A DNA stretch of 64,000 bases, taken from assembly GCA_902791625.1 (NCBI GenBank), contig CADAWN010000001.1:35333-99332 (forward strand). Reading direction: 5' to 3'. Below, piece after piece: positions 25,386 to 62,587 of the stretch; position 1 is the stretch's first letter, and every line of letters begins with the position of its first letter. The translations under genes and the position numbers were made by a program. The notes beneath the pieces were generated by a model that ran no database searches, had not been told where the DNA came from, and saw only the letters and a program-made list of their open reading frames with translations. The DNA is from an uncultured Erysipelotrichaceae bacterium (GTDB lineage: Bacteria > Bacillota_I > Bacilli_A > RF39 > UBA660).

Positions 25386-26531
25386 TTATGGATTTGGCTT
25401 ATAACCGTTTGTAGTCTTACCAGTCCAGTTTGCTACAAATTTAGTAGGATACTGTGTAGGATAAGCTTGTGTATCCTGAAGGTCTGTATTTACATATACA
25501 CCCCAATCATTATTGGTAAGAATAGCTACACCAACTTTCTTATAAGCTTCTACTTCCATTGTTCTATCTCTACCCTTGAAATCATCAACAATAGTATCGC
25601 CTTCGAAAACAATCTTAACTGGCTTACTCTTACCATTAGGGAATACATAAGCAAGAGCAGGATTTACTACAGTAGTAGTATTGTTATCGTCAGTAAATGA
25701 CTGTGGAATTTCAACAATAGGGTTGCCACGGAAAGTCTTAATTCTACCATACTGAGCAATCTCTTCAATGTTTCTAGGATTATATACAGGTGTTGCAACA
25801 CCAGTAGCACCAGAATTTCTTGCCCAAGCCATTGGCATACCAATTGCCTCAGGTCCCATAGCCTGTACGAATTCAGGAGCAGCGAAAATTGTAACTCCGC
25901 CATCACCATAAGTACCAGCAATGGTTACAAGTTGCTGCATACCATCTGGATCAAAGCCGGCACTAATAACCTTATTTCTTGCAGGACGATCATCAGCATT
26001 AACTGCGGCAATAAGAGCTTGCTGAATTAAACCATAAATTGCCTCAACCATACCCTCAAGAAGAATTTCAGCAACTTCTGCAACATCCTCTTGACCACAA
26101 ATATATCTTTCAAAGTCAATAATACCAGTACCACCAATTGCGCTAGCACTTACTTCAAAAGTATCGCTATCAAGTCTGAAAGCCTCATATACACCAGAAG
26201 GTGCAACTGCTGTTACAAACTGCTTAGCTCTACGTCTACCTCTCTTAACTACAAACTGTGCTTTTTCATTATTTGCAACCTGCTTAATTTCAGCAAACAT
26301 TGACATAAATTCTTCTACAGTCTTAGGAAGAACTTCATCAAAAGCCTCTTGCATAATTTCAAAAATATCTAATCTATTTCTACGATAAGAATTAAAATCA
26401 TAAGCAAGCTCATGTAAAGCATTAGAGGTTGCCTTCTTTATATCTTCAACTTGATATTTAGTAGGATTTGGAGTTGTTCCTCTGAATGAATGAACAATTA
26501 AATCCTTAATCATTTGCTTTTTATTCTCCAT
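25386..26531 (-). CDS. Major capsid protein (HK97-fold type), 381 aa, TAG-free
   Basis: Intact track ORF with AAAGGAGGT upstream. It follows the scaffold gene. The sequence has MCP character (..AVAPSGVYEAFRLD..GGVTIFAAPEFVQAMG..). Its GC content is elevated and its codon usage looks optimised. Confidence 0.75.
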   Translation of the reverse strand: MENKKQMIKDLIVHSFRGTTPNPTKYQVEDIKKATSNALHELAYDFNSYRRNRLDIFEIMQEAFDEVLPKTVEEFMSMFAEIKQVANNEKAQFVVKRGRRRAKQFVTAVAPSGVYEAFRLDSDTFEVSASAIGGTGIIDFERYICGQEDVAEVAEILLEGMVEAIYGLIQQALIAAVNADDRPARNKVISAGFDPDGMQQLVTIAGTYGDGGVTIFAAPEFVQAMGPEAIGMPMAWARNSGATGVATPVYNPRNIEEIAQYGRIKTFRGNPIVEIPQSFTDDNNTTTVVNPALAYVFPNGKSKPVKIVFEGDTIVDDFKGRDRTMEVEAYKKVGVAILTNNDWGVYVNTDLQDTQAYPTQYPTKFVANWTGKTTNGYKPNP

Positions 26532-43450: not shown

Positions 43451-43463
43451 AGGAGGTTTAAAA

Positions 43464-45537: not shown

Positions 45538-46098
45538 TTTAAATTCAACTCCTTTTCTTTTACTATAATCATTATACCATAAAAATTATTAAATGTCAAT
45601 AGAAATAAAATTAAACTTTTATTAATTAGTTAAAAGATTTAATTATTACAGAATTATGAACACTGCGATAGTACTACATTATGAACATACTATAAATATT
45701 ACGACCGCACTGCCGCACTGTTAATATCTTCTTAACAAACTCAACTGCCGCACCGTTCACAATTTCGCAATAATTAAAAATTCTAACCAATTAACAAAAA
45801 CTTAATAAAAAAAATTTTCAAAACCTATTGACAAACAACTTGAAATATGCTATACTATATATAGTGAAAGAGAGAAAAACAAAAAACTCTCAAAAGTAAC
45901 TTGACTTTCCCCAATAGTCAAAACGCACAAAAGTAAACAATAAAGTTTGTGCAAAATGCCAGTTGACTTTCCTTGAAAAGTATGCTATAATGTATACAGA
46001 ACAAAGGAAAGAGAGGCAAAGAAAATCCCAAAATCATACGTCCCCAATAACAAATCAATGTCAGCCGATAGACGTTAAAACGGAGAAAGAGGTAAATT

Positions 46099-46449
46099 AT
46101 GACACAGAGAGATTTTTACAACGCAATCGCTAACAACACAGAGCTTGCACCTGAGCTTACAGATTTTGCAAAGGAAGCTATCAAGGCACTCAACAAGAAG
46201 AATGAGGCACGCAATAGCAAGGCAAACGCAAAGAAGGCAGAGGTCAATGCACCTATTATTGCCGCTATCCGTGAGGTACTTGCAGACGGCAAGCCGCATT
46301 TTGCAGGTGATGTTGCCACAGCAGTAGAGCAGTCACTCCCAAAGGTTGCCGCACTTGTTAAGACTATGGCAGATGTAGCCGTATCAAAGGCAAAGCCGGA
46401 GGGCGCAAAGGCAAAGAAAACTGTTTACACTCTTGTTGTTGAGCAGTAG
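46099..46449 (+). CDS. Small Lys/Ala-rich protein with a winged-helix-like C-terminus, paralog 1 of 4; ends in TAG
   Basis: Track ORF MTQRDFYNAIANN... The leader contains GGAGAAAGAGG. Tandem promoters lie at about 45826 and 45962. GC content is higher and the codons look optimised (AAG/GCA-rich). Confidence 0.7.
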   Translation: MTQRDFYNAIANNTELAPELTDFAKEAIKALNKKNEARNSKANAKKAEVNAPIIAAIREVLADGKPHFAGDVATAVEQSLPKVAALVKTMADVAVSKAKPEGAKAKKTVYTLVVEQ

Positions 46450-46777
46450 TCAATAAATGGAAACGGTGAACAAAAGTTCGCCGTTTCTTTTTTTCTAATT
46501 AGTTAAAAATTTTAACTATTACGAAATTATGAACATTGCGATAGTTCTATTTATAACAAAAGTATGAACAATACGATAGGTTAATGTCGTATTATTAACA
46601 TAATCTTAACATTTTGTACTGCCGCACTGTTCATATTTTCGCAACATTTTAGCACTTTAAACTACTAAAGTGTTCGTAACCACTTTGTAACCTTTTGTAA
46701 TAATTCTGTAATTGACTTTTATAGTTATATGTTGTATAATACGTATAGAAACTTAAAGAAAGACAGGTGTTCAAAAA

Positions 46778-47440
46778 TTGAATAAGCGTTTGTATATTGT
46801 ACTTGACACGGAAACTACAAACAACATGGATTTTCCTTTTGTTTATGATTTAGGTTTTTCCGTTGTTGACAAAACAGGCAAGGTATATTACAAAAGGTCA
46901 TTTGTAATTTATGATATTTATGTGCTTTGCAAAGACTTAATGAGAACAGCGTACTATGCAAATAAACTCCCACAATATGAAATTGACTTGAAATCTAAAA
47001 AGCGTGAACTTGTTAGATTTTCCACGGCAAGAAAAATTATACTCCAAACAATGAAAAAGTATAATATATATGCAATTATGGCACACAATATGCGTTTTGA
47101 CCTTAATGCACTTAATACCACTTTAAGATATATAACAACATCACAACAGAGGTATTTTTTCCCACAAGGCACAAGACTTTGGTGCACTTTGGCAATGTCA
47201 AGGTCAATTTTCAAAAACAAACCTACATACAAGAGGTATTGTGAAGAAAACGGATACTTGACAAGAAACAAGCAAATAAAACTCACAGCGGAAATTATTT
47301 ACAGGTTTATTACTGGAAATAATGACTTTGTTGAAAATCACACGGGACTTGAAGATGTAATGATAGAAAAGGAAATTTTTTCCTACTTGAAAAGACAGCA
47401 TAAAAAAATGCAGTTGACTTACTGGAAAGAAACGGCATAA
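46778..47440 (+). CDS. DEDDh (DnaQ-like) 3'-5' exonuclease, copy 1
   Basis: The track ORF contains the motifs VLDTETTN, AHNMRFDLNALN and HTGLEDVMIEKEIF (H-x4-D). Confidence 0.75.
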   Translation: MNKRLYIVLDTETTNNMDFPFVYDLGFSVVDKTGKVYYKRSFVIYDIYVLCKDLMRTAYYANKLPQYEIDLKSKKRELVRFSTARKIILQTMKKYNIYAIMAHNMRFDLNALNTTLRYITTSQQRYFFPQGTRLWCTLAMSRSIFKNKPTYKRYCEENGYLTRNKQIKLTAEIIYRFITGNNDFVENHTGLEDVMIEKEIFSYLKRQHKKMQLTYWKETA

Positions 47441-47599
47441 GCCGTTTTTTTCTACCCCTATTTAGTTAAAAGATTTAACCTTTGCCGCAAGTCGCAACGT
47501 TCACAATTTATTCACACTATCGCATTATACATACCCCGTTAATAATTAAAAAATAAAACTAATTCACAAAAACTTAATAAAAAAATTTTCAAAAACCTA

Positions 47600-47628
47600 T
47601 TGACAAATAAATATATATGTACTATAAT
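47600..47628 (+). promoter_or_regulatory. Consensus early promoter, given as an example of the family
   Basis: TTGACA, a 17-nt spacer, TATAAT, then TATATACAGAAAAG. The same layout sits in front of nearly every gene between 36 and 61 kb. Confidence 0.7.
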
Positions 47629-47660
47629 ATATACAGAAAAGAAAAAAGGAGGTTGTCAAT

Positions 47661-48113
47661 ATGGCAATAGAAAAAACAATTAACTTTGATTTAGATGGGA
47701 CTTTAGCAGACCTTTACGGCGTGGAAAATTGGCTTGCATATTTGCAGGCAGGTGATAGTACACCTTATGAAACAGCAAAGCCCCTTGTAAAGATGCAGGT
47801 GCTTGCAAGAATGTTGAATAACAAAAAAAGACAGGGTTTTACAATAAATGTTATATCATGGCTTGCTAAAAATTCAAACCCTGAATATGATGAAAAGGTA
47901 AAAAATGCTAAATTAAATTGGCTGAAAAAACATCTCAAAAGCGTTGAATTTGATAATATATTTATTGTAGAATATGGTACTCCCAAGCAAAATTTGGCAA
48001 AAGGTTTTTTATTCGATGACGAGGTAAATAATAGAATAAACTGGAAGGGTATTGCTTTTGATGTGAATAATATAATAAATGATTTAAAGACATTAACTAA
48101 TTACACCTCCTAA
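47661..48113 (+). CDS. HAD-superfamily phosphatase (5'-nucleotidase-like)
   Basis: The track ORF has N-terminal FDLDGTLAD (the DxDxT motif I) and a late FDDE. Confidence 0.65.
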   Translation: MAIEKTINFDLDGTLADLYGVENWLAYLQAGDSTPYETAKPLVKMQVLARMLNNKKRQGFTINVISWLAKNSNPEYDEKVKNAKLNWLKKHLKSVEFDNIFIVEYGTPKQNLAKGFLFDDEVNNRINWKGIAFDVNNIINDLKTLTNYTS

Positions 48114-48343
48114 ATTATGGAAATGGCGAACAAGTGTTCGTCATTTCTATTTTGTTATTTAGTTAAAAATTTTAACTGCGGCACAGGGTATCGCAATGTT
48201 CACATTTCCGTAACATTTTAACGCTTTAAAGTATTAAAGTAAAACTGTAACTACTTTGTAACTATTCGTAACTAAATTGTAATTGACAAATCAAAAGATA
48301 TATGCTATAATGTATACAGAAAAGAAAAAAGGAGGTTGCTAAT

Positions 48344-48715
48344 ATGGCAAAGTCAGTAAAAACAATGAAAACTGAAAAGAAAAATGAGTACATTGAAAAA
48401 ATTACCAAATTCCTTCTTGAAAATGAGGAGGACGTGGTAAGAACTGGAAGCGGTGAACTTGCTTTTCCTATTGTCCTTGAAAATGGAGATGAATGCTTTA
48501 TTACTCTCAAAGTATCAATACCCACAGGGACAAGAGATGGTGAAGATTATAACGGTTATGCAGTAGCAAACAGTTATAAAATTGACTGCGAAAAATCCGC
48601 AGTAAAAGCGGAAAATGCAAGGAAAGCAAAAGAAAAGAAAATTGCCGCAGACAAAAAACGCCGTGAAAACTCCGCAAAAATTAAAGCGGAGAGAGAAAAG
48701 AGAAAAGAGGGATAA
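48344..48715 (+). CDS. Hypothetical protein with a basic KKIAADKKRRE tail (paralogous to 59353..59772)
   Basis: Track ORF with AAAGGAGGT upstream. It shares its C-terminal motif and overall layout with the minus-strand genes at 59.0-59.8 kb. Confidence 0.65.
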   Translation: MAKSVKTMKTEKKNEYIEKITKFLLENEEDVVRTGSGELAFPIVLENGDECFITLKVSIPTGTRDGEDYNGYAVANSYKIDCEKSAVKAENARKAKEKKIAADKKRRENSAKIKAEREKRKEG

Positions 48716-48880
48716 CCTCTTTTCTTTTTATTTAATTAGTTAAAAATTTTAACTATTGCCGCAAGTCGTATTGTTAATAGTTTCTTAACATTTTTGTACT
48801 GCCGCACTGTTCATACTTTGGTAATAATTAAATCTTTTAATCAATTCACAAAAAGTTAATAAAAAAATTTTCAAAACCTA

Positions 48881-48909
48881 TTGACAAATCGGAAAATCTA
48901 TGTTATACT
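48881..48909 (+). promoter_or_regulatory. Consensus early promoter for paralog 2
   Basis: TTGACA, a 17-nt spacer, then TATACT with a TG extension. Confidence 0.65.
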
Positions 48910-48990
48910 ATATACAGAGTTAAGGGAAAAGCCCTTAAACAATAAAGTAAAGAGAGCCGAACTCAATAAAACGGAGAAAGTAGGTAAATT

Positions 48991-49332
48991 ATGACACAGA
49001 GAGATTTTTACAATGCAATCGTTAAGGCAGATGTAGCACAGGAGTTGAAGGACTATGCAAGCGCACAGGTTCAGGCACTTAACAACAAGAACTCCGCAAG
49101 AAATGTCAAGGCAAGGGCAAAAAAGGCAGATGAAAACAAACCCCTTGTAGCACAGATTAAGACAATCCTTGCAGACGGTCAGGCACATACTTGCTCTGAA
49201 ATTTCCGCAAGCACTGGCGCAAATATTCCTAAGGTATCCTCCCTTATAACCACATATTTCAAGGATACTGTTATAAGAGAAACTGTTAAGGTAGACAAGA
49301 AGAGGGCAGTTGCATATCGCCTTGCACAGTAG
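48991..49332 (+). CDS. Small winged-helix-like protein, paralog 2 of 4; ends in TAG-TAA
   Basis: Track ORF MTQRDFYNAIVKAD... Its leader AGAGAGCCGAACTCAATAAAACGGAGAAAG is conserved. Confidence 0.7.
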   Translation: MTQRDFYNAIVKADVAQELKDYASAQVQALNNKNSARNVKARAKKADENKPLVAQIKTILADGQAHTCSEISASTGANIPKVSSLITTYFKDTVIRETVKVDKKRAVAYRLAQ

Positions 49333-49540
49333 TAAAAATTGGAAAACGGCAGAAATGCCGTTTTTCTTTTCACTTAATTAGTTAAAAATTTTAACTATTG
49401 CCGCGGGTCGTAATGTTCATAATTCCATAATATTTAAAATAAATAACAAATTCACAAAACTTTAATAAAATAACTATTGACTTTTAATATTTTTTATGTT
49501 ATACTGTATATAGAAAATAAAAAGAAAGGTGGTTGCTAAT

Positions 49541-49972
49541 ATGGCAAATATGTATTTTAATGATGATTTTGAGGTATGTTCAATAAGTAAAGACCCTGCG
49601 TATCTTTACATTGATGACGTAGACAAGTTCCTTTATGATTGCGGTGATGGTTACGTTTCTGATGGTGTAGATAAGTCAGGCGTTTATCTATGGAATAACT
49701 ACTATTGTGTATGGGATTTAGCCGACCCTGAAATTGATAAGAAAATTAGAGCATTAGTTGAGGAGATTAACACTCTCCGTCAAGAAAAATCACACCAGGA
49801 TAATAATAAAGTTACTGGGTGGAATATTTCAGTTACTCTTGACTCAGGTTTGTGTGTTAAAATCAATAATGAACCTATTTCAATGGATAAAGTCCCTGAG
49901 ATAATAAATACTCTTCTTAAACCATACTTTTTCGGTAAGAGAATTATAGAATTTGAGATAGTTGCGGAGTAA
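49541..49972 (+). CDS. Hypothetical early protein (143 aa)
   Basis: Track ORF trimmed to the ATG after AAAGGTGGT. Confidence 0.65.
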   Translation: MANMYFNDDFEVCSISKDPAYLYIDDVDKFLYDCGDGYVSDGVDKSGVYLWNNYYCVWDLADPEIDKKIRALVEEINTLRQEKSHQDNNKVTGWNISVTLDSGLCVKINNEPISMDKVPEIINTLLKPYFFGKRIIEFEIVAE

Positions 49973-50158
49973 TCCGCAACTTTTTTATTTTAGAGTTAGT
50001 CATTCCTAACCGACCGTCGCATCATTCACACTTTCGTAACATTTTATAGCGGCGGCACAAAATAACCAAAAATTACTCCTAAACTTTGTGCATTTTGCCA
50101 ATAGACAACCTCTTTAATCTATGCTATAATAAAAATAGAAATTAAGGAGGTTGAACCA

Positions 50159-50790
50159 ATGGCAAAAAAGAAATTCTATATGGTACTTGATACCGAAACG
50201 GCAAACGGACTTGATGACCCTCTTGTTTATGATATAGGTTTTGCAATCATAGACAAAAAAGGTCAAGTCTATCTTGAAAAATCCTTTGTTATTTACGATA
50301 CTTTTGTTTTGATGAAGGACTTAATGCAGACGGCATATTATTCCGAAAAAATCCCACAGTATGAGGATGACTTAAAAAACGGTAAAAGAAAACTTGTTAC
50401 CCTTGCAACCGCACAATCAATAATTGCATATAACCTTAAAAAGTTTAATGTTAGTGCGGTAATTGCCCACAATATGAGATTTGACTATAACGCCCTTAAT
50501 ACAACCCTCCGTTATTTAACTAAATCTCAAAAGCGTTATTTTCTCCCCTATAATACTACAATTTGGTGCAGTCTTGCGATGGCACGAACAACAATAGGCA
50601 AACAAAAAACGTATCAACTTTGGTGTAAAGACTTACTGCCGAAATTCTCTACCGATATATAACAGATAATAACGATTTTATCGAAAGCCATACAGGACTG
50701 GAGGACGTTCTTATCGAAAAGGAAATTTTTGCACATTGTATTCGTCAACACAAGAAAATGCAACGCACATACTGGAAGGAAACGGCATAA
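50159..50790 (+). pseudogene. DEDDh exonuclease copy 2, disrupted by a frame-shifting internal deletion
   Basis: Residues 1-160 align with copy 1. After LWCK the frame breaks (stop at 50660-50662). The rest (RLTAEILYRYITDNNDFIESHTGLEDVLIEKEIF..WKETA) continues in another frame to TAA at 50788-50790. About 34 nt are missing relative to copy 1. Confidence 0.6.
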
Positions 50791-50975
50791 GCCGTTTTCT
50801 TTTTTATTTAATTAGTTAAATTTTTTAACTGCGGCACAAGGTGTCGCATTGTTCACAGTTCAGTAATAATTAAATCTTTTTACTAATTAACAAAAACTTT
50901 AAAAAATAACTGTTGACATTTAATAAAATCTATGCTATACTGTATATAGAAAATAAAAAGAAAGAAGGTTTTAAA

Positions 50976-51167
50976 ATGGCAACTTTTACAGTACGTTTTA
51001 TCCAGGAGTATACCTACGAGGTGGAGGCAAATGATGTTGATGAGGCAATAGATAACGCCGAGGAAGAGTTTAGTTTTGATATGTGTTCACCAATAGCCAA
51101 TACTACATGGGACGAAATGATAGTAGAAGATGAAGATGGAGAAGAAGTCGCACATGGATATATGTAA
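50976..51167 (+). CDS. Hypothetical acidic protein (63 aa)
   Basis: ATG follows AAGAAGGT. The upstream part of the track ORF is promoter DNA. Confidence 0.6.
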   Translation: MATFTVRFIQEYTYEVEANDVDEAIDNAEEEFSFDMCSPIANTTWDEMIVEDEDGEEVAHGYM

Positions 51168-51182
51168 AGGAGGTTAAAAATA

Positions 51183-51416
51183 ATGAATATTATTACTGCA
51201 CCAAGATACCAAGATTTTAGCGGACATATCCATAAAACAAAAGAGGATTGTGTAAATGCAGAAAAGAATTTTAAAGAAAATATTATTCAGACATTTAAAG
51301 AATTGGCAAAAGGTTGTAGAAATCAAAAAAATTGTAAAGATTGTCCTTTTCAACATGAAATTAAATGTTTTTTTGGTGAAACAACAGGTGAACTTCCAAT
51401 ACACTGGGATATTTAA
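51183..51416 (+). CDS. Cys-rich small protein (77 aa), paralog of 51810..52064
   Basis: Track ORF with AAAGGAGGT upstream. It shares the blocks PRYxDFxGxIxxTxxxCxNAExNF..FxELAKGC. Confidence 0.65.
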   Translation: MNIITAPRYQDFSGHIHKTKEDCVNAEKNFKENIIQTFKELAKGCRNQKNCKDCPFQHEIKCFFGETTGELPIHWDI

Positions 51417-51609
51417 GAAGGGGATACCCCTTCTTTTTTTTATTTTAATTAGTTAAAAAATTTAACTGCGGCGCAAGGTGTCGCGGCATTCATATTCTCT
51501 TAATAATTAAAACAACTAACTAATTAATAAAAATTTAATTTTATTTCTATTGACTTTTAATAAAAACTATGTTATAATAAATATAGAAAATAAAGAGGAG
51601 GTAGTCCAA

Positions 51610-51804
51610 ATGCTAACTATTAGAGATTTAATCTGTCAAGGTGCCGACCTTGATATGCCAATCTGTGTATTGGCACGAACTCATGATGAAAAAGGTAACT
51701 GCACAGGCGTATACTATTCTTATGCTGAAATACCATCGGACAATTTCACAATTGTAGATGGTATACTCACTATAATGACAGATGTTAATGATGTAGGAGG
51801 TTAA
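51610..51804 (+). CDS. Hypothetical protein (64 aa)
   Basis: ATG follows GAGGAGGT. The upstream part of the track ORF is promoter DNA. Confidence 0.6.
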   Translation: MLTIRDLICQGADLDMPICVLARTHDEKGNCTGVYYSYAEIPSDNFTIVDGILTIMTDVNDVGG

Positions 51805-51809
51805 AAACA

Positions 51810-52064
51810 ATGAGAGTAATCAATGAACCAAGATACGAAGATTTTAAAGGAAAAATCTACAGGACACAAAAAGAGTGTATAAACGCAGAAAACAACTTTG
51901 TAGAAGATGTTTTCCAGTTGTTTGAAGAATTGGCAAAAGGTTGCGGAAAATATGGAGCCGAGTGCAATGGTTGTCCCTTTTATGATAATAACTTAGATTA
52001 TTGTTCTATTCAAGCAACAACAGGCGATGCACCAGCAAATTGGATATTTAAAGAAGGGGAATAA
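51810..52064 (+). CDS. Cys-rich small protein (84 aa), paralog of 51183..51416
   Basis: Track ORF with GGAGGT upstream. Confidence 0.65.
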   Translation: MRVINEPRYEDFKGKIYRTQKECINAENNFVEDVFQLFEELAKGCGKYGAECNGCPFYDNNLDYCSIQATTGDAPANWIFKEGE

Positions 52065-52276
52065 TCCCCTTTTTTATTTATTTAATTAGTTAAAAATTTT
52101 AACTTTCTTGCTCTGTCGCAACGTTCACAAATCCTTAACATATTACAAAACTATGAACATAGCGTCCGTCCATTTGGTTAAAACATTTAACTAATTAACA
52201 AATCCTTAACATCTCCCATGATCGAACATACGTTCGCCTCCACCATTGCATAATCTATCTATCCCCCTTCCATAAT

Positions 52277-52397
52277 CGAGCTGCAGCTGTCGAGCTACAA
52301 TCGAGCTACAGTTCCATGCGAGCTGCAAGCTGCGGCAATCAACGAGCTGGGGCGGCACTTTAGTTAAAATTTTTAACTAATTCTCCAGAATCGAGCT
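52277..52397 (+). repeat. Six CGAGCT(R)CA repeats where the two transcription blocks converge
   Basis: CGAGCT occurs at 52277, 52291, 52302, 52319, 52343 and 52392. Confidence 0.8.
52360..52380. repeat. Perfect copy of the 21-bp palindrome TTAGTTAAAATTTTTAACTAA
   Basis: Read directly from the sequence. At least 17 further near-copies lie between 40.7 and 54.5 kb and are listed in the findings. Confidence 0.85.
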
Positions 52398-52408
52398 GCA
52401 ATAAAAAA

Positions 52409-52435
52409 GATTGACTTTATAAAATAAAGCCAATC
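52409..52435. terminator. Bidirectional hairpin terminator between the convergent blocks
   Basis: GATTGaCTTTAT-aaa-ATAAAGcCAATC, flanked by A/T runs. Confidence 0.55.
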
Positions 52436-52465
52436 ATTAATATTTTACTCAAAAAATTCTACTAT

Positions 52466-53224
52466 CTAATTATTTAACAAATCATTCTTTAAGTCCTCAG
52501 AAATCTTTTGTCCCTCTGTATTCAAATACTTAACCGCTTCTCCGCCATTGGTATAATAATTAACTGACTTTAATTCAAATACACTTACTTTTGTACCCAA
52601 ATTAGTCGTTTCAATTGTAATTGTATAGTCTATTAAATCAAGTTTTTTAAGCCATATTAGCCCATTAATAATAGCTCTATTATTATCTCTATCTTTACTA
52701 AGTTTTAAAAGACCCCTTAAGTCTGCAATTGTAAATACCCTATCACAAGAACTCATATAACAAAAACGTTCTTGCATTTCTGCTAATAATAAATATAGTT
52801 TCAATTCCTACTCAGAAACGGCATAGTCATACTAAATTCTATTTAGTGTTTCTCGCGGCATAATACGATAAGGAGTTGCCTTTGGAATACTGTAGTAAGT
52901 CGCACCATCTTTCTTACGTAACATAAATTCTTTATCCCAAGTTAGGTCTAAGTGCCGCGGCCCTTCGTATTTTATTAAACCATGTTGTTCCAATAGATTC
53001 CAGTACTTTTTAATAGTATTTGGATGCATATGTAATATTTCTTTTATTTTATTAACAGTAAAGTCTTTATGTGAGAATACTCTAGGTTTATTCTTTCCAT
53101 TAAAAGTTGAAATTGAAACCAAGTATACATATAATCGCATTGAATTCCTTTGTACTTCAACTTCATCTGAAACAATCGGTAAGTTTTCTCCTGTGGCTTT
53201 TAACTGTTTTTCATTATTACGCAT
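52466..53224 (-). CDS. Replication-initiator-like protein (two winged-helix-like halves) joined across two in-frame TAGs
   Basis: Track ORFs 52832..53233 and 52466..52804 are in the same frame. They are separated only by TAG-YDYAVSE-TAG (TAGs at 52832-52834 and 52808-52810). The second half has no usable RBS. ATG at 53224 follows AGGAGGTGA, and iterons lie immediately upstream. Confidence 0.5.
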
Positions 53225-53323
53225 AAATATCACCTCCTATTATATAAGTAGGATTGAAAGACTTTTTCTCTAAAAAAATCTACACCGATTAAGATTTTAC
53301 TATAATGTTTTATTCATCTTCAT

Positions 53324-53421
53324 TTTTCCTTACTGAATCTTCACTTTTCCTTACTAATTTATCAGTTTTCCTTACTGAGTTTATCAATTTTCCTTACTGA
53401 ATCTTCACTTTTCCTTACTGA
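53324..53421. repeat. Five iterons TTTTCCTTACTGA at 21-22 bp spacing
   Basis: Copies start at 53324, 53345, 53366, 53388 and 53409. Confidence 0.85.
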
Positions 53422-53589
53422 AATCGGCTTACATATAATAGATTACTCTTTTACGAAAGAGTAAGCAGAAAAGTTGTCCTTTGTCGGCCTAAAGGACCAA
53501 AGGCCGCTCGCCACTTCGTGGCTCACTTCAAATCAAAAGATAGAATAACTAGGATTAAGGATAGGGGTATTTATTTTATTTAAAAAGTT

Positions 53590-53697
53590 AGAACCCCTAT
53601 TTATTATACCCCGTTTTATTATAACCCCTATTTATTAGAACCCCTATTTACTTTGAGGTAACTAAAATTTACTATGGGTAACTAAAATTTACTATGG
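53590..53697. repeat. Additional origin-region repeats: (A/G)ACCCCTATTTA x3-4 and GGTAACTAAAATTTACTATGG x2
   Basis: Read directly from the sequence. The tandem 21-mers are at 53657-53677 and 53677-53697. Confidence 0.8.
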
Positions 53698-53903
53698 ACT
53701 TAACTAATTTTTACTTTGTGCCGCCCTCCATAAGTCAAAACCAAGCGACCCCTTATTCCTAACAACCCCTATGTTTTGTCTGGGATAATGGGCCGCGGCG
53801 CAGCGTAATTCCAAAGCGGGGCGGCAAATTAGTTAAAATTTTTAACAAAATACCCTCCCCTATTACAAAACCTCTTTAGTTAAAAATTTTAACAAATTCA
53901 GTA

Positions 53904-53933
53904 ATAAAAAAAAGAGATACCTTTCGGTATCCC
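53904..53933 (-). terminator. Intrinsic terminator after paralog 3
   Basis: On the minus strand, GGGATACCGAAAGGTATC is followed by TCTTTTTTTT. Confidence 0.7.
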
Positions 53934-53966
53934 TTTCTTCGTTACTCTTAGTCATTATCCTTTGCC

Positions 53967-54230
53967 TTATAGAGCAATAACTGCTACCTTAGCAATCTTA
54001 ACACCAAGAGCCTCAGCAAGCTCAGCAGTACCATGAACCTTGCCGTCTCCAAGAATAGTATTGAACTGCTCAACAAGAGGTCCGTTAATCTCTGCTTTCT
54101 TCTCTGCTGCCTTAGCTGCTCTCTTGCTATTTACCTTATCAAGATTAGCAAGTCCAGCCTTAGCAAACTCCTTAACCTCAGCCTCAACGTTAGCATTAAC
54201 AATAGCCTCAAAAAACTCTCTCTTAGTCAT
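53967..54230 (-). CDS. Small winged-helix-like protein, paralog 3 of 4 (87 aa, shorter)
   Basis: Track ORF trimmed to the ATG (MTKREFFEAIVNAN..) after GAGAAAGAGGT. Confidence 0.65.
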   Translation of the reverse strand: MTKREFFEAIVNANVEAEVKEFAKAGLANLDKVNSKRAAKAAEKKAEINGPLVEQFNTILGDGKVHGTAELAEALGVKIAKVAVIAL

Positions 54231-54839
54231 AATGTACCTCTTTCTCCTAGTCATTACTAGGTAATTAAAATGTTGATATAACTTATTAGACTTTCAATCG
54301 AAAGGAAGTAAAGAGAAGAAACGAACCCATTTTGCGCAATATTTATGCGTTTTTATTACTTTTTAGTGGCTTTTTTCTCTTTTTTCTTCCTTTCTCTCTC
54401 TTTTCTATATATATTATAGCAAAAATTTTAGAAAAAATCAACCATTTAACTTTAAAAATTATTTAAAATTAAAGTTAATTAGTTAAAAATTTTAATTAAT
54501 TCGTTTTTTAGACGAGAAAAGTTTATTTTATAGGAAAATTTAACGCCTTACGGCTATTGATTACACTTATATGCCGCGGACAGGTATTGGATGGGATTAG
54601 GGAAAGATTAGGATTGGAAGAGAAATACTCCTTTATTAATATATTAATATATTATATTAAAATATTGACTTTTAGTGTTTGTTTGCGCACACACAAAATT
54701 ATAGTATTGTACACTATTCTATACTATTGTTAACTATCCCTATTTTTGACACTATGGAGAGCTCCTCCAGGGGATAGGCATTAGTCTTACTTAGTAGTAT
54801 AGATGCCCTCTTAGATTATTGTTTACACTTTTTATTTAC

Positions 54840-55030
54840 GTTTTCCTTTTACTACTTTCCTTTTCTTTTCTTTTTTTTCTTCTTCCTTCCCCTTCCTTTC
54901 TTTTCTTTCTTCTTTTATTATTATATTATTATTATATTATTATATTATTATTATATTATTATATTTATATATTATATTATATTATCTTCCTTTCCTTCTT
55001 CCCTTTCTTCTTCCCTTCCCTTTCTATAAT
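54840..55030. repeat. Homopyrimidine (CT-rich) tract, then (TTA/TAT)n, then a second CT-rich tract
   Basis: Read directly from the sequence. The track ORF 54819..55136 over it is a low-complexity artefact. Confidence 0.8.
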
Positions 55031-55074
55031 AATAAAAGAGTTTAGATTAAATCTAAACTCCTTATTAATTAATA

Positions 55075-55854
55075 TTAATTATTTAAATACTCTTGATATA
55101 ATTCTTCCAATAACTCTTTATATAATATTGAATTAATAGAGATAGAAATAGAATTTAATTTTAAAATTGAATTAGTTTTAGTAGTACCTTTTATTTCTTT
55201 AGTATCTATAATTCCTTCTTTATTTATTTTATATCTATATATCTTCTTTAAACTAGGATAATAAGAATTTAATACTGATATAAAAGTAGAGTAGTTAATT
55301 AAATTATTCTTAATATAGTAATAATAAATATTTAAACAATAATATCTTAAACAAATATTATATATATATCGTTTAGTTTTTTCTTCTTCTTTCTCTACTT
55401 TATTCTTAAAATCCTTAGAAATAACTAAATTCCTTATTAAAGTCTTTTTATAATCTTCTTTTTCTTTTTCTTCTTCCTTAATTAAATTAGGACGTTTTTT
55501 ATTTATATTAGTTAAAGGACGATAAGAATTAACTCTATTAGAATTTATATCTATATTATGGGAACTTAATTCTAATCCTCTTTTACTCTCTGGTTCTTTA
55601 GGGAAGAGTTCTTTTCCTTTATAAAGAAGTTTTGTTTTAAGAACTTTATCTACATAAAGTTTTAATTCAGCATTAGTAGAAAAATCTACTACTCCTACAA
55701 ATTCAGTATAAAGAGTATCTTTATTTGGGTAACGCTTAAAACTAGAAAACTCTTTTAAATTTTCTTTTGGATTAAAGTCTTCTATTTCATAAGTAGTAGT
55801 TTTTTGTTTTGTCGTAAAAGACCAATAATCTTTACGATAGAGATTATATTTCAT
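55075..55854 (-). CDS. Hypothetical protein (259 aa), extremely AT-rich and Lys/Asn/Tyr-rich
   Basis: Track ORF with AAAGGAGGT upstream. Its composition differs clearly from its neighbours. The hairpin AAAGAGTTTAGATTAAATCTAAACTC lies downstream. Confidence 0.55.
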   Translation of the reverse strand: MKYNLYRKDYWSFTTKQKTTTYEIEDFNPKENLKEFSSFKRYPNKDTLYTEFVGVVDFSTNAELKLYVDKVLKTKLLYKGKELFPKEPESKRGLELSSHNIDINSNRVNSYRPLTNINKKRPNLIKEEEKEKEDYKKTLIRNLVISKDFKNKVEKEEEKTKRYIYNICLRYYCLNIYYYYIKNNLINYSTFISVLNSYYPSLKKIYRYKINKEGIIDTKEIKGTTKTNSILKLNSISISINSILYKELLEELYQEYLNN

Positions 55855-56006
55855 TTTAATTTTACCTCCTTTTAGAGAGCCTATTTAATCCCTAAGTTAA
55901 CCTTTCGGATTTTACCTGCTCTCTTTAACTTTCATATATTAAGTATCTTCTATCCCAACTTTTTCTAAAATTTTCATAACTTTTAATAAAACCTGAAACT
56001 TTAGGT

Positions 56007-56414
56007 CTACTTTTTTATATCGTGATTATAGTATTCTGTAAAAACATTCTGTGCCGCGAGTTGTAAATAATTTGCATATGCCTCTTCATAAACATCAGGT
56101 TCGGTATAGACAATTTTTATTGATAAATCCCTAAAATCTTTCATAAGACCTTTATTCTCTTCTTTTGCTTTCTCAATCCACTTCTGCCGCGGCTTATTAT
56201 TCCAAAAGAGTTGAGCAAAGATTTCTTTTAATCTATACCCCATACATTTTGAACGACCTATAAAGACTTTAGCATTAGGAAAGGTTATAATAAAAACTCC
56301 TTGTCTTTTATATCCTACCTTTATAAATAGATATTCATGCTGTAAATCTCTAACATATTGTTCTAACTTCTTTTGTTCCTCAACAGTTAATTTTATTTCT
56401 TTAAAATTATCCAT
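56007..56414 (-). CDS. GIY-YIG-like nuclease-domain protein (135 aa)
   Basis: GVFIITFPNAKVFIGRSKCMGYRLKEIF matches the GIY-(x9)-YIG-x8-R spacing of GIY-YIG nucleases, with GVF and FIG as the variant forms. Confidence 0.45.
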   Translation of the reverse strand: MDNFKEIKLTVEEQKKLEQYVRDLQHEYLFIKVGYKRQGVFIITFPNAKVFIGRSKCMGYRLKEIFAQLFWNNKPRQKWIEKAKEENKGLMKDFRDLSIKIVYTEPDVYEEAYANYLQLAAQNVFTEYYNHDIKK

Positions 56415-56664
56415 TATATAAATCTCCTAATTCCTCATCTCTTGGTAGTATTGACCAAGTTACTCTATCATAGATATACTCTACCATTTCATCATAATTC
56501 AATATAGATTGAGTAGCTAGAACTTTAATTAGTAAATCAACAGCGTCAGAATTTGGATAGTCATTTATATCACTATATTTATATAATATCTTTAAAACTT
56601 CACAATTACGCTTAACGATATGGATTGTTTGGCGCAGATAAATTATAAATTCTTCTTTTGTCAT
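56407..56664 (-). CDS. Hypothetical protein (85 aa)
   Basis: Track ORF with AAGGAGGT upstream. It overlaps the next gene by 8 nt. Confidence 0.6.
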   Translation of the reverse strand: MTKEEFIIYLRQTIHIVKRNCEVLKILYKYSDINDYPNSDAVDLLIKVLATQSILNYDEMVEYIYDRVTWSILPRDEELGDLYNG

Positions 56665-56738
56665 TATATTACCTCCTTATATTACTCGGTGCCGCGCTCC
56701 AATATTTAAAGCAAAACTTGAAGGGCGGCACATTGTTA

Positions 56739-57221
56739 TTATTCATCATCATAGTGAGTATTTTTCTTAATACCTTTTGGAGTTACTAAGTCAATTTTAG
56801 CCAAATCTTCAGTAATTCTTTTATACTCCTTATCAATTAAATACTTATCAAACCCTCTAACGAGTTTTTCCACTGGTATGCCATGATAAGTTAAAACATA
56901 ATCTTTCTCATTCTCTAATACTGTAATAGGAATAGTATTAATTGTTTCAAGAGCTTTAAGAACTTCCTTTTTTCTAATAAAGATTGACCTCCAATTGCGA
57001 TATTCCTTGGATGGTATTTCACATATATACTCCTTTTGTTTTAAACAGTAGGCAATATAATCTAATATATCCTGAACATCAGCTATATCTTTTGTTGGTA
57101 CAACGTGACGATAATTTCCGTGTTCGAAGCCGAGTTCTCCATTTACATTCTGAAAACACGCACATACATCAGTATTAATCATTTTAAATAGTTCATTATC
57201 TTTCTTAAGTATTATCCACAT
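56739..57221 (-). CDS. Hypothetical protein (160 aa), paralog of 57285..57683
   Basis: Track ORF. The shared blocks are LDYIxxC..C, LTYxGxPVExL and LxDK. Confidence 0.6.
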   Translation of the reverse strand: MWIILKKDNELFKMINTDVCACFQNVNGELGFEHGNYRHVVPTKDIADVQDILDYIAYCLKQKEYICEIPSKEYRNWRSIFIRKKEVLKALETINTIPITVLENEKDYVLTYHGIPVEKLVRGFDKYLIDKEYKRITEDLAKIDLVTPKGIKKNTHYDDE

Positions 57222-57284
57222 ATTTTATTCCTCCTTATTCAGTGCCGCGACTACAAAATTTACTGCAAATTACTAAGCGCGGCA

Positions 57285-57683
57285 TTACGTATCTTTAAAA
57301 ATTTCTTTTTTAAAATTATTTAAAGCTTCTTCATCTATATCATCAAAAGTATCAAGACCTTTAATATATTCTTGACAAATCTTATCTAAAAGTTGTTTAT
57401 TACATTCCTTATAGAGTTCTTCTACTGGTACTCCCCTATAAGTTAAAATATCATTGTGGTATCTAGTATATCGTTTATTATCAAAATCACAAACTTTATA
57501 ATCATTCTCCATACAAAAATCAATATAATCTAAAAAATCTTTATAATCTGAGCCTTTTAAGTCTACTTCAACAGAATGTCCTGAAGTAAAAATAATTTCA
57601 AGAATATTATAATCACTATCTTTTTGTTTTATAAAATCAACATTATCCATATTTATTATACCTTTTAAATTTCTAATTATCAT
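57285..57683 (-). CDS. Hypothetical protein (132 aa), paralog of 56739..57221
   Basis: Track ORF trimmed to the ATG (MIIRNLKG..) after AAGGGGGAAG. Confidence 0.6.
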   Translation of the reverse strand: MIIRNLKGIINMDNVDFIKQKDSDYNILEIIFTSGHSVEVDLKGSDYKDFLDYIDFCMENDYKVCDFDNKRYTRYHNDILTYRGVPVEELYKECNKQLLDKICQEYIKGLDTFDDIDEEALNNFKKEIFKDT

Positions 57684-57700
57684 TATTCTTCCCCCTTTTA

Positions 57701-58420
57701 TTAACCTTTCCAATAACAATATAAACAACCAGAAGGGCATCTCTTTTTATTATTCAGTAACTCAGTTTTTCCTGCACAGCAAGCACAAGACTTTCTTTGG
57801 AAACCACCTTTTTGAATAGTAGAAGTATCAAGACCAAGAATTTTATAATCCTTTTCACTAATACAACCAACTTTATCTGGCAAATCTTCCGCACAGGCTT
57901 CAAAAGTATAATACTTTCGATAAGGTTCTATTGCTTCTAAAACATCATCTATCATGTATTGTGGAGCTTTAAAGGTTTCAAAAGGAACTCTTTTATAAAC
58001 TTTATAAATGCGTTCTTTAACATAACTATACATATCTATAATAGAATATCGACATCTATTAATTCCTAAATCTTCAAAAAGTGTCCAGGGTGCTATAACG
58101 TGTTCAATTCCTATTCTTGTTGGAATAATAGGATCGGTTCTAAGGACTATATGATCTACTGGAAAACCTGCATCTATAAGTTCTCTTGCTCCTTGATATA
58201 CATCATATGTTTTAGGAACATTAGGTTCCATCTCTGTATGACCATAACCAGTACAAGTAACATGAAGTATAATTTTATCTTTATTTTCTATTAAAGCTTG
58301 AATAAGCTTAGAATTTGAACAAGTAAGTTGTTTAGTAATAATAATATTACCTTTTAATAATTTATCTTTCCAAGATAAATCCAAGCCAGCATCTCCAGCC
58401 TCAGTTATTCCAAAATTCAT
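57701..58420 (-). CDS. DUF1848-like protein with a Cys-rich C-terminus (possibly Fe-S)
   Basis: The C-terminal ..QRKSCACCAGKTELLNNKKRCPSGCLYCYW matches my recollection of the DUF1848 (PF08902) Cys motif. The gene appears translationally coupled to the upstream gene (TAATG). Confidence 0.5.
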   Translation of the reverse strand: MNFGITEAGDAGLDLSWKDKLLKGNIIITKQLTCSNSKLIQALIENKDKIILHVTCTGYGHTEMEPNVPKTYDVYQGARELIDAGFPVDHIVLRTDPIIPTRIGIEHVIAPWTLFEDLGINRCRYSIIDMYSYVKERIYKVYKRVPFETFKAPQYMIDDVLEAIEPYRKYYTFEACAEDLPDKVGCISEKDYKILGLDTSTIQKGGFQRKSCACCAGKTELLNNKKRCPSGCLYCYWKG

Positions 58421-58734
58421 TATTCTTCCTCCTTAGATAATTTATTCCAATACCTATCAATAATAGCCTGCATATTTTCACGTCCAACCACATTTTGAGT
58501 ATGGAGTCTAATAGGATAATGTCTTTCAGTTTCTGCAAGCCAAAGAACTAATTTTATTCCGTCTCCACCATCATAAGCATAGTCGCCAAGGTCGTGATCA
58601 AGGTCAAGAACTTCAATCTCTATCCCACGTTCTTCACACTCTTGAATGTAGTATTTTGCATCATTTACAGACGTACACCAATAGTATCCATCAGGTGCTA
58701 CTCTTATATCATCAAGCCATATTTTAGCAAGCAT
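58420..58734 (-). CDS. Cyclic-phosphate-processing receiver-like (cREC) domain protein
   Basis: IWLDDIRVAP..VLDLDHDLG..IRLHTQNVVGRENM matches the cREC/REC-like pattern (WLDD.R.P...LDHDLG...H..NP.G) as I recall it. Its own promoter TTGACTTTTTAAACTTTTTATGATATAAT lies near 58770-58800. Confidence 0.5.
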   Translation of the reverse strand: MLAKIWLDDIRVAPDGYYWCTSVNDAKYYIQECEERGIEIEVLDLDHDLGDYAYDGGDGIKLVLWLAETERHYPIRLHTQNVVGRENMQAIIDRYWNKLSKEEE

Positions 58735-58976
58735 ACTATTTTCCTCCTTTTTTATCTTTCTATAATAATTATATCATAAAAAGTTTAAAAAGTCAAATTA
58801 TTTTATCAAAAGTAAGTACAATAGATAATCTGGTATTGTGAACAGTGCCGCAAAGTTAAGAATTTGTTTACAATTTTCTGCCGCCGGCAGCAGGTAGTGT
58901 CAGGGAGATACCTGTAGTCGCGGCAAAGCATAAAAAAATAGCCACCCTTTTGAGTGGCTATCTTACTTCTTATTTT

Positions 58977-59330
58977 TTACTTCTTTGGTGCGTCCTTAGC
59001 TTTATTATCCAAATTATACCTTTCGACTTCTTCATCAAAGATATAACGAGAAACTGGTCTTTCCAACTTAACTCCCTTAGAGTTAATCTCTCTGTCATAC
59101 CAGGGTTTAGTAGTTGCATTAAGGACAACAACTACATCCTGACTATAACCATCATCATCGCAGGCTACTCCAACAACAAGAGCTACTTGATTAGACTCAA
59201 CTTTACCAACTCTTTCATATCTCTCTTTCAAAAAATCATAGAGGTCATTAAGTACAGCCTGCCTTGCCTGATTTTTTATAACAGAAACCTTTTTCTCATT
59301 AGTAAAATCTATTACATTTCTTTCAGCCAT
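58977..59330 (-). CDS. Hypothetical protein (117 aa), distant paralog of 59353..59772
   Basis: Track ORF with GGAGGT upstream. Confidence 0.6.
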   Translation of the reverse strand: MAERNVIDFTNEKKVSVIKNQARQAVLNDLYDFLKERYERVGKVESNQVALVVGVACDDDGYSQDVVVVLNATTKPWYDREINSKGVKLERPVSRYIFDEEVERYNLDNKAKDAPKK

Positions 59331-59352
59331 TGTTTACCTCCAAAATCAAAAC

Positions 59353-59772
59353 TTAATCTTCTGACTTCTCTCTCCGAGCCTTATCTGCCGCAATCTTCTT
59401 ATCTTTAAGTTCCTTTTTTACAGCATCCTTTTCAGCTTTTTCATTAAGATAATCAATGTATCTCTGTGTATCTTCGGCAATATCATAAGCCTTAAAGACC
59501 TTCTTTACTGTACGTCTATCAACGGGATCCTTCACTGAAATAGAAACCGTTGCACAAAGCGGAACAACTGTTCCATCTTTAAGTTCAATATCACCAAGAT
59601 ATATTCCTATATCATTACTTGGATGTTCACCGCCAGACCTTACCATTCTCGCATCAAACTCAGAGAGCAACTCAATTACTCTTTGATTGACATCAACTCT
59701 TGCTTGTGCCTTTATTTTATTAACTGTCATATCCTGTGTTTCTGTATAATTCATATTATTTTTTCCTTTCAT
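59353..59772 (-). CDS. Hypothetical protein with a KKIAADKARRE tail (paralog of 48344..48715)
   Basis: Track ORF. The true start may be the internal ATG at 59754. Confidence 0.6.
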   Translation of the reverse strand: MKGKNNMNYTETQDMTVNKIKAQARVDVNQRVIELLSEFDARMVRSGGEHPSNDIGIYLGDIELKDGTVVPLCATVSISVKDPVDRRTVKKVFKAYDIAEDTQRYIDYLNEKAEKDAVKKELKDKKIAADKARREKSED

Positions 59773-59841
59773 ATAAATGGGGTTGCGGGACGGTACTAAG
59801 ACCGCCCCTTTATAAATAGTTTTAGAAAACTAATTATCTAA

Positions 59842-60201
59842 TTACTGCTTAGTGTAGCAGTTTACCTTGCCCTTGCCCTTAATCTTGGTTTCACCCTTTA
59901 CAAAAGTACCATTCTCAACAAGTGCCTTCATAACAGTTGCAACCTTCTGGAAGTTAGTACCATCTGCAAGAACCTCAGCGATTGCCTTTGCAGTATAGTT
60001 AACTCCTACCTCAGTTACCTCGATAATTCTCTGGCGAAGAGCCTCATCAGCCTCAGCCTTTGCCTTAGCAGCAGGTGTCTCCTTGTTCTTTCTTGCTTCA
60101 TTTCTTGCATTGAGCTTCTCAACCTGTACCTTAGCAAACTCCTTAACCTCGTCTGTTACATTTCCCTCTGTTACTGCGTTAAAAAATTCTCTCTGTGTCA
60201 T
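59842..60201 (-). CDS. Small winged-helix-like protein, paralog 4 of 4
   Basis: Track ORF MTQREFFNAVTEGN... Its leader AGAGAGCCGAACTCGTAAAAACGGAGAAAG is conserved. Confidence 0.7.
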   Translation of the reverse strand: MTQREFFNAVTEGNVTDEVKEFAKVQVEKLNARNEARKNKETPAAKAKAEADEALRQRIIEVTEVGVNYTAKAIAEVLADGTNFQKVATVMKALVENGTFVKGETKIKGKGKVNCYTKQ

Positions 60202-60356
60202 AATAAATTCTCTCTTTCTCCGTTTTTACGAGTTCGGCTCTCTTATTAAAAGTTTATTTATTTTAAGAGAGTTTCTTCTTTTCTCTCTCTTTTCTATATA
60301 TATTATATCAAAAATTTTTTAAAAAGTCAATTATTTTACTGACTTTGTTATTTATT

Positions 60357-62531: not shown

Positions 62532-62587
62532 TTTTTAACCTCTCTTTCATTTTTCTATAATTATTATAACAAAAATTTTAAGAAAAG

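Follow-up and report, generated by a model that had tools for sequence, protein, structure and literature searches.

What might a phage do with four versions of one small, oddly coded protein? The question is raised by a 64,000-nucleotide (nt) stretch of DNA, hereafter the window, taken from a contig (CADAWN010000001.1) assigned to an uncultured Erysipelotrichaceae bacterium; the window covers bases 35333-99332 of this contig, which spans 163,214 base pairs (bp) at 29.6% G+C (GC). Four genes in the window, here called p1 to p4, encode diverged members of a protein family that we denote W. We conclude that W is a real family of early phage winged-helix proteins, large and so far unstudied, and that a second family, denoted K, is its constant partner. 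The W proteins are best read, with a rough probability of 0.45, as proteins made early and in abundance that bind nucleic acid at a target which phages have in common, probably acting as global regulators of transcription or of host takeover.

Four paralogous genes

The four W genes are as follows:

46099..46449, plus strand: p1, W-family protein of 116 amino acids (aa), stop codon TAG
48991..49332, plus strand: p2, W-family protein of 113 aa, stop codon TAG followed directly by TAA
53967..54230, minus strand: p3, wingless W-family copy of 87 aa
59842..60201, minus strand: p4, W-family protein of a deep separate lineage, 119 aa

An earlier reading of the letters (the original prediction) had placed four genes with a shared N-terminus on both strands, and all four open reading frames (ORFs) were recovered where it had put them. 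Their proteins begin MTQRDFYNAI (p1 and p2), MTKREFFEAI (p3) and MTQREFFNAV (p4). A longer ORF for p3, to 54254, gains nothing but a further in-frame ATG, itself located within the ribosome-binding site. Alignment identifies the four as true paralogs, as had been proposed: p2 to p4 are 34-42% identical to p1 in full-length alignment, with 17 invariant columns, and BLASTP joined p2 to p3 at E=3e-21 and p1 to p4 at E=9e-10. A profile of 64 family sequences matched all four at 1e-33 to 4e-27, its sole matches in the 1.53-Mb genome bin to which the contig belongs. The matches of p1, p2 and p4 cover profile positions 1-112/113; that of p3 covers 1-102, with stop codons in its last part. The intact window copies are basic (isoelectric point, pI, 9.2-9.75), and their charge resides in the middle helix and the wing.

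Predicted fold

An AlphaFold2 model of p1, built on a 21-sequence alignment, reached a mean predicted local distance difference test score (pLDDT) of 86.6. It contains helices at residues 3-11 and 18-63, a strand at 67-68, helices at 69-76 and 80-89, and a beta hairpin at 93-98/107-112; confidence was lowest (78) in the Lys/Ala-rich stretch 41-50, where homologues carry indels. As modelled, p1 is a canonical MarR/TrmB-type winged helix behind a two-helix module. The check proposed with the original prediction, structure prediction followed by Foldseek, returned a winged-helix fold for this copy: the matches were winged helices of MarR, ArsR/SmtB, BirA, TFE-alpha, an RNA polymerase III subunit and Z-alpha, superposed at 2.4-3.3 Å over 63-72 columns with probabilities of 0.97-1.0. 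In the viral library, Foldseek returned uncharacterised phage proteins (best 9e-4). A winged helix had been suggested for three copies; for p1 the model and Foldseek agree with it, and for p2 and p4 the agreement comes from alignment.

In Pfam, p1 to p4 reached no threshold and gave no MarR match at E≤1. Sub-threshold Pfam matches among the 64 relatives went to MarR_2 (20, best 1.8e-5), TrmB (15), HTH_24 (11) and IclR (9). No chain of HU/IHF fold occurred among the 50 Foldseek matches listed or the 54 PDB sequence matches. Model and alignments end 3-6 residues past the last wing strand, and since the W proteins stop there, the C-terminal dimer helices of MarR (alpha-5 and alpha-6) are absent.

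The shortest copy, p3, ends ...KVAVIAL, which leaves its recognition helix one residue short, and a terminator stands directly behind. Its profile alignment runs 14 codons beyond the stop, through one TGA and two TAA, so that the wing has decayed:

53925..53966, minus strand: decayed p3 wing remnant, in frame, with three stops, partly overlapping the terminator hairpin

In L001, the phage most closely related to this one, the p3 ortholog has kept its full length (118 aa). Compared with it, the retained part of p3 has a ratio of non-synonymous to synonymous substitution rates (dN/dS) of 0.20, and p3 has kept its promoter and codon bias. Either the wing was lost recently, therefore, or the wingless protein is still in use.

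A large family restricted to phages

Profile searches over 1.84 billion representative sequences, with clustering at 50% identity, collected at least 1,893 W clusters at E≤1e-3 and 693 at E≤1e-10. The members listed measure about 100-165 aa, mostly 110-130, and in most of them the match begins at residue 1 and reaches the end. They share one plan: an N-terminal two-helix module (MTxREF...A...LDxRNxxR), a Lys/Ala-rich basic helical connector and a winged helix. Positions M1, T2, R4, F6, A24, N35, K82 in the recognition helix and Y110 in the last strand are near-invariant; the consensus wing is EVKVxxKGKxKxY, and a basic wing of the form ..KVKGKGK.KGY is found in most members. The only name they carry in any source is 'hypothetical protein', and the family has no Pfam model. 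The nearest PHROG family, phrog_19455 of unknown function, was matched by p4 (E=7e-7) and by 27 of the 64 relatives; p1, p2 and p3 did not match it at E≤0.1. In 399 genomes of the bin's bacterial class there was no strong full-length match, only domain-level matches at about 1e-6. From these searches W appears to be a large family restricted to phages.

Multiplicity is the rule. All 14 of the 14 phage contigs from IMG/VR that were reached through the family carry two to five W copies within about 10-15 kb. In a maximum-likelihood tree p1, p2 and p3 form one clade (support 100/99) and p4 sits on a deep long branch. Each of the first three pairs one-to-one with an L001 gene (99/88, 99/88 and 100/97), with dN/dS of 0.30, 0.24 and 0.20 for the three ortholog pairs, so the paralog set is old and maintained. 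GenBank phage records gave no match to p1, p4 or a central family member in tblastn, nor to the region in megablast. Profiles detected three remote W members in Enterococcus phage EF1 (MF001358.1), namely ASZ76733.1, ASZ76768.1 and ASZ76775.1, annotated as hypothetical. These have profile E-values of 3e-9 to 1.5e-4, 17-23% identity and a like layout; their genes lie at 43097-43489, 62308-62697 and 67088-67501, one of them inside a cluster of transfer RNA (tRNA) genes.

Phage genome and transcription units

The contig had been binned together with a 1.53-Mb genome of about 25% GC and belongs to a free circular phage genome of about 175.3 kb. A second contig, C35 (12,260 bp, 29.4% GC), overlaps both ends of the main contig by 99 nt; these overlaps close a circular map, and the genome is therefore a free phage and not a prophage. 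PHROG matches in the AT-rich window (about 29% GC) include a portal, a large terminase, virion proteins and a sigma-like factor. The portal and the protein encoded at 25386..26531 have distant kin in Phass-1 ('Caudoviricetes code 15 clade'), in Enterococcus phages EF1/VRE9 and in large Bacillus phages. A 22-mer comparison of the phage contig with the remainder of the bin gave no CRISPR-like matches.

Read in the standard code, the window has just 7 ORFs of at least 200 aa; with TAG read as glutamine it has 24, and those gained include a minus-strand run of late genes at 1-35 kb. Recoding TGA as tryptophan did not help to open ORFs in the window. The ORF at 4049..11467 alone contains 71 in-frame TAG codons. 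ARAGORN found 19 tRNA genes on the two phage contigs, mostly for A-ending codons, and none with anticodon CUA despite the many in-frame TAG codons of the late genes; the source of TAG decoding is thus not visible among the phage tRNA genes.

The region from 35 to 64 kb is dense in near-consensus TTGACA-17-TATAAT promoters and intrinsic terminators (31 terminator-like sites vs 7.7 expected), by which it is recognised as an early region of many small cassettes, predicted to be read by host RNA polymerase. All four W genes lie here, with these signals:

45828..45856, plus strand: upstream second promoter-like site of p1 (TTGACA-17-TATACT), 11/12 in the consensus scan
45963..45991, plus strand: p1 promoter (TTGACT-17-TATAAT, TG before the -10 element), 11/12 in the consensus scan, aligning with the p2 to p4 promoters
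45998..46098, plus strand: purine-rich 5' leader of p1, ending CAGCCGA..AAAACGGAGAAAGAGG (ribosome-binding site), from the upstream alignment
46459..46497, plus strand: p1 intrinsic terminator, 13-bp stem and T-run
46500..46518, no strand assigned: boundary palindrome TAGTTAAAAATTTTAACTA behind the p1 terminator, exact match
48881..48909, plus strand: p2 promoter (TTGACA-17-TATACT, TG), from consensus scan and upstream alignment
49341..49397, plus strand: p2 terminator (49341-49366) and boundary palindrome (49379-49397)
54413..54441, minus strand: p3 promoter (TTGATT-17-TATAAT, TG), from consensus scan and upstream alignment
60302..60330, minus strand: promoter of the p4-K2-K3 operon (TTGACT-17-TATAAT, TG), from consensus scan and upstream alignment
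58935..58964, minus strand: terminator closing the p4-K2-K3 unit, 13-bp stem and T-run

The upstream regions of p1 to p4 align with one another, each with a TTGAyt-17-TGnTATAAT promoter and a purine-rich leader, and AAAACGGAGAAAGAGG stands ahead of the ATG in p1, p2 and p4. The second site of p1 lies 135 nt further upstream than the main promoter. The first 30 transcribed nt of p3 and p4 are near-identical. From the -10 element to the start codon the distances are 107 nt (p1), 81 nt (p2), 182 nt (p3) and 100 nt (p4), vs 26-66 nt in other early cassettes. Single-gene units are formed by p1, p2 and p3, each with a terminator and then the palindrome TAGTTAAAAATTTTAACTA behind it. Between p4 and the two K genes that follow it, K2 and K3, no promoter or terminator was found, and the three are read as one operon headed by p4.

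The same design recurs in a wider comparison set of 38 related loci. A promoter matching the consensus at 10-12 of 12 positions was found within 200 nt of 88 of 103 distinct W genes, with a median leader of 84 nt; these 88 relatives, like the window copies, combine it with a strong ribosome-binding site. No Rfam family matched the W leaders. A structured regulatory leader was considered and dropped, since only the p3 leader beats its shuffles (z=-3.0) and the other leaders do not. The motif AAACG before the ribosome-binding site was likewise set aside as a W-specific feature: it occurs in 23% of W genes vs 3% of others, too few, and is probably inherited rather than a feature of the family.

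A TAG stop ends 25 of 105 distinct W genes (in loci including L004, L006-L010 and L032). In about 14 of the 25, the reading frame meets no TAA or TGA until past the terminator, as in p1 (46447-46506), where the first one comes at +57 nt and the hairpin ends at +40. With no further stop before the terminator, late suppression of TAG would give non-stop products. The remaining TAG-ended genes have a backup stop within 3-24 nt, p2 (49330-49335, TAG TAA) among them.

Codon usage

Unusual composition, another feature of the original prediction, was evident in all four genes. Their GC content is 42-48% vs 21-37% in neighbouring genes, and the AAG share of their lysine codons is 0.85-1.00 vs 0.12-0.38 in most neighbours; higher shares than in most neighbours also occur in the K genes (0.19-0.61) and in the gene at 25386..26531 (0.77). 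Pooled, p1 to p4 use AAG at 0.93, GAG at 0.81, CAG in 16 of 16 cases, CTT at 0.79 and TTA not at all. Across the 38 loci, W genes lie 10-15 GC points above their locus, with 1059 AAG vs 379 AAA codons.

The codon usage had been likened to that of the capsid gene. The likeness held: 25386..26531 uses AAG at 0.77, CAG at 0.59 and CTT at 0.71, vs a phage AAG average of 0.23. Its naming as capsid comes from gene order, as the gene is TAG-free and stands behind a portal and a scaffold-like gene, in the position expected of the major capsid gene; Pfam, PHROGs and annotated relatives did not confirm the identity, and it is unnamed in libraries and records. We take it as the probable capsid gene. The codon signature would then mark a class of genes that includes it, which supports high expression, and very high expression of the W genes is plausible.

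The partner family K

Three K genes were found in the window:

48344..48715, plus strand: K1, K-family protein of 123 aa with a 52-residue basic helix ending KKIAADKKRRE
59353..59772, minus strand: K2, K-family protein, true start probably at 59753, behind GAAAGGA
58977..59330, minus strand: K3, distant K relative of 117 aa, 29% identical to K2 (E=2e-4)

K1 has its own promoter:

48283..48311, plus strand: K1 promoter (TTGACA-17-TATAAT), 12/12

The second small family that had been noted beside W is real. K1 and K2 are homologous (28% identity, E=3e-6) and recruit identical homologues in related phages, and homologues of K3 in L037 adjoin K2-like genes. K genes are present in 38 of 38 loci and interleaved with the W genes; the median distance between the two is 917 bp. 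The noted closeness to genes for proteins ending in KKIAADK(K/A)RRE is a real linkage; p4 does not stand alone and heads the operon that it forms with K2 and K3. The family comprises at least 751 clusters at 90% identity, unnamed bar one evident misannotation. AlphaFold2 predicts K1 (pLDDT 90.9) as a helix at 5-26, three strands and the 52-residue basic helix. No K protein matched Pfam, K1 had no convincing fold match in the PDB, and no K member was found in EF1, Phass-1 or three Bacillus/Lactococcus phages. With an AAG share of 0.42, the K genes are far less biased than the W genes.

What the W proteins may do

In the reading we favour, host RNA polymerase would transcribe the W genes straight after infection from their near-consensus sigma-70-type promoters, and the proteins would build up to high levels. 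They would bind nucleic acid, most likely as dimers, at a target common to phages rather than at the palindromes peculiar to each phage. This target may be the consensus early promoters that the phages share, the RNA polymerase bound there, or DNA in general. Such binding could reprogramme or shut off host-type transcription during takeover. A conserved target is favoured because the recognition helix and K82 are conserved across phages.

Several observations weigh against this reading. The Foldseek E-values are weak (0.02-0.1), so that the fold call leans on topology, on the probability scores and on the many sub-threshold profile matches that agree with one another. Family pI ranges from 5.0 to 9.75 (median 6.8 in related loci and 8.75 in the representative set), and not all members resemble classical DNA binders. 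The clade of the window and L001 differs from the others in recognition helix (xxPKVAAL) and palindrome type alike, a point taken up below. Finally, the W codon signature is the opposite of that of the bin's ribosomal-protein genes (bin contig C10, 11800-26000), which use AAA at 0.78, GAA at 0.92, CAA at 0.96 and TTA at 0.67. An argument from codons to abundance hence requires another host, or a bias that acts at the level of messenger RNA (mRNA). 'Codon-optimised', as the genes had been called, would hold only if the true host is other than the bin organism, and this conflict puts the bin as host assignment in question. On the simplest reading the true host is less AT-rich than the bin, and the binning reflects low GC and not infection; the W genes may then be fitted to the host tRNA pool because they would be translated before the phage tRNAs appear. 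Selection on the mRNA itself would also fit the signature.

The original prediction had also offered the abundant intergenic motifs as what these proteins read. In such a scheme W dimers would recognise the 19-21-bp palindrome TAGTTAAAAATTTTAACTA, or the TGAAC..GCGATAG boxes (TGAACATTGCGATAG), in a sequence-specific manner, each paralog reading its own motif and so controlling each early cassette. In favour of this, 28 strand matches to the palindrome, or about 15 sites, fall between 40.7 and 54.5 kb at cassette borders, vs 0.09 expected, and a 21-bp palindrome suits a winged-helix dimer. Most related lineages have a palindrome of their own, about 21 bp long and in up to 24 copies per 16-20 kb; loci with their own palindrome are L002, L006, L007, L014-L017, L020, L022, L026 and L034, and the examined W phage lineages that bear such repeats each have an abundant one. 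Most variants share ..AC-N7-GT.. or an outer TTAG. The half-sites compared were:

TTAGACGT: L016, 24 copies
TTAGACTT: L015, 23 copies
TTAGACTA: L020, L022 and L027, 18-20 copies
TTAGACGG: L002, 5 copies
TCGTACGT: L006, L007, L014 and L034, 7-13 copies
TGGGACGT: L017 group, 6-14 copies
AGTTAAAA: window and L001, 5-6 copies

In related phages the palindromes mostly lie between a terminator and the next -35 element, 5-20 bp upstream of the latter, and from this position a dimeric reader encoded by the phage is likely. That W is this reader is doubtful. A base-specific reader is expected to change along with its site. One W subfamily carries the recognition helices ISTQKASALLRQL, TSTQKASALLRAL and ISTQKASALVKKV across the half-sites TTAGACGG, TGGGACGT and TCGTACGT, and its helix STQKASAL(L/V)(R/K) stays near-constant although the half-sites differ. 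A test for covariation of recognition helix and half-site was negative for this main subfamily, which argues against W as the specific reader. The STQKASAL(L/V) core is likewise near-constant across TTAGACGT, TTAGACTT, TCGTACGT and TGGGACGT, vs AGTTAAAA in the window clade, and the claim as first made is left unsupported. Moreover, L004, L008, L010 and L033 carry W genes and no repeated palindrome, and the window's own palindromes come behind terminators, 80-190 nt from the next promoter. Other W paralogs have more variable recognition helices, and since helix and palindrome both differ in the window/L001 clade, the motif-reader idea is weakened rather than removed.

Rather than reading motifs or regulating promoters, the proteins might coat DNA. 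A histone-like role, with sequence-neutral binding that compacts or shields the phage genome, incoming or replicating, or the host nucleoid (the role of phage SPO1's TF1 in another fold), would suit the signals of very high early expression, the basic pI and charge distribution of the window copies, a conserved recognition helix and basic KGKGK wing fit for backbone contacts, and several gene copies that could raise the dose. It is improbable given that the median pI in related loci is only 6.8, that a strictly conserved N-terminal module suggests a specific partner, and that the paralogs, 34-42% identical, form separate orthologous lineages under purifying selection, which fits specialisation better than dosage or bulk coating. 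The same N-terminal conservation (M1, T2, R4, F6, A24 and N35 are the most conserved residues) could instead mark an adaptor whose winged helix and N-terminus grip a host protein (RNA polymerase, sigma-A or a defence protein) or K with little or no DNA contact, as an early takeover or counter-defence factor. The obligate linkage of W and K, the acidity of some W members, the restriction of the family to phages and the small size and solitary transcription typical of early takeover proteins all accord with such an adaptor; we still think it unlikely, as K82 and the basic wing are also conserved, as contact with nucleic acid would predict. Least probable by far is that these GC-rich, oddly coded genes are recent foreign imports of ordinary expression. 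Their GC and codon usage are indeed unlike the rest of the phage and the bin. A like bias, however, marks the W genes of dozens of divergent phages, is shared by paralogs older than the split between the window phage and L001, and recurs in the probable capsid gene; dN/dS is 0.2-0.3, and the 399 genomes of the bin's class hold no strong full-length cellular homologue.

A bolder extension of the regulatory reading, to which we give little credence, joins W and K in a conserved two-protein early system of large Firmicute-type phages, those with TAG read as glutamine among them. It would flood the cell within minutes and silence all consensus sigma-A promoters, of the host and of the phage's early region alike, or wrap DNA in phage-specific chromatin. 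In recoding phages the system would be off late, and about half of the TAG-ended W genes would then yield non-stop read-through products.

Comparison with known systems

The best structural and profile neighbours of W are the MarR/TrmB regulators (MarR, MarR_2, TrmB, HTH_24), which it resembles in the order helix-strand-helix-helix-strand-wing-strand and in the basic wing; the W N-terminal helix resembles MarR alpha-1. The differences are as clear. No W member reaches the Pfam gathering score (PF01047/PF12802), the C-terminal dimerisation helices and the ligand pocket are missing, and W has its own MTxREF motif and basic connector, is confined to phages and is present in multiple copies.

TF1 of SPO1, a large Firmicute phage of Bacillus, is small, binds DNA and is made in very large amounts, traits that W would share; it has the HU fold, is single-copy and prefers hydroxymethyluracil DNA. 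W differs from it in fold (winged helix) and copy number, and the hydroxymethyluracil preference has no demonstrated counterpart in W. A further likeness to SPO1 lies in the layout of the early region, where small genes are numerous and a strong sigma-A promoter and a terminator flank each of them (for the SPO1 transcription programme, see PMC13401047).

T7 Gp5.7 has the function proposed here for W. This small winged-helix-like phage protein is reported to bind both DNA and the host's RNA polymerase and to repress those promoters of the phage genome that the host polymerase uses; it is presented as helping to complete the shut-off of that polymerase rather than as an abundant immediate-early product (PMC5569994). 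Gp5.7 differs in being a single-copy protein of 7 kDa, and it was absent from the PDB sequence matches at E≤1 and from the 50 Foldseek matches listed. The resemblance would be one of proposed function and fold class only.

EF1 resembles the window phage in carrying several W copies, three in its case, with the W layout; it differs in their 17-23% identity and in having no detectable K gene. The distant W members of these cultivable Enterococcus phages (the EF1 group) offer an experimental entry point. W and K are very large families with no Pfam model, name or studied member, and they are encoded by the early genes with the strongest expression signals in a widespread group of gut and rumen phages of 100-180 kb. 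Knowing their targets would help to explain host takeover by these uncultured phages, among them several with TAG read as glutamine.

Neighbouring early genes

Other genes of the early region were noted in passing. The ORFs at 46778..47440 and 50159..50662 encode paralogs of 220 aa and 167 aa that start M..K.YIVLDTET, each with its own early promoter; the pair matches phrog_20187 and a 'DNA polymerase exonuclease subunit' family. Between p1 and K1, 47661..48113 is an early gene of the NT5C-type 5'(3')-deoxyribonucleotidase class (Pfam PF06941, 4.6e-6; phrog_2643), whose product could manipulate the pyrimidine nucleotide pool. On the minus strand, 52448..53233 is one protein of 262 aa when TAG is read as glutamine, with three in-frame TAG codons, and weakly matches both a DnaD-like helicase loader (phrog_186, 1.5e-6) and ScpB. 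Also on the minus strand, at 57701..58734, a cREC-type receiver gene (PF20274, 4e-22) overlaps a DUF1848 gene (PF08902, 4e-14) behind one early promoter.

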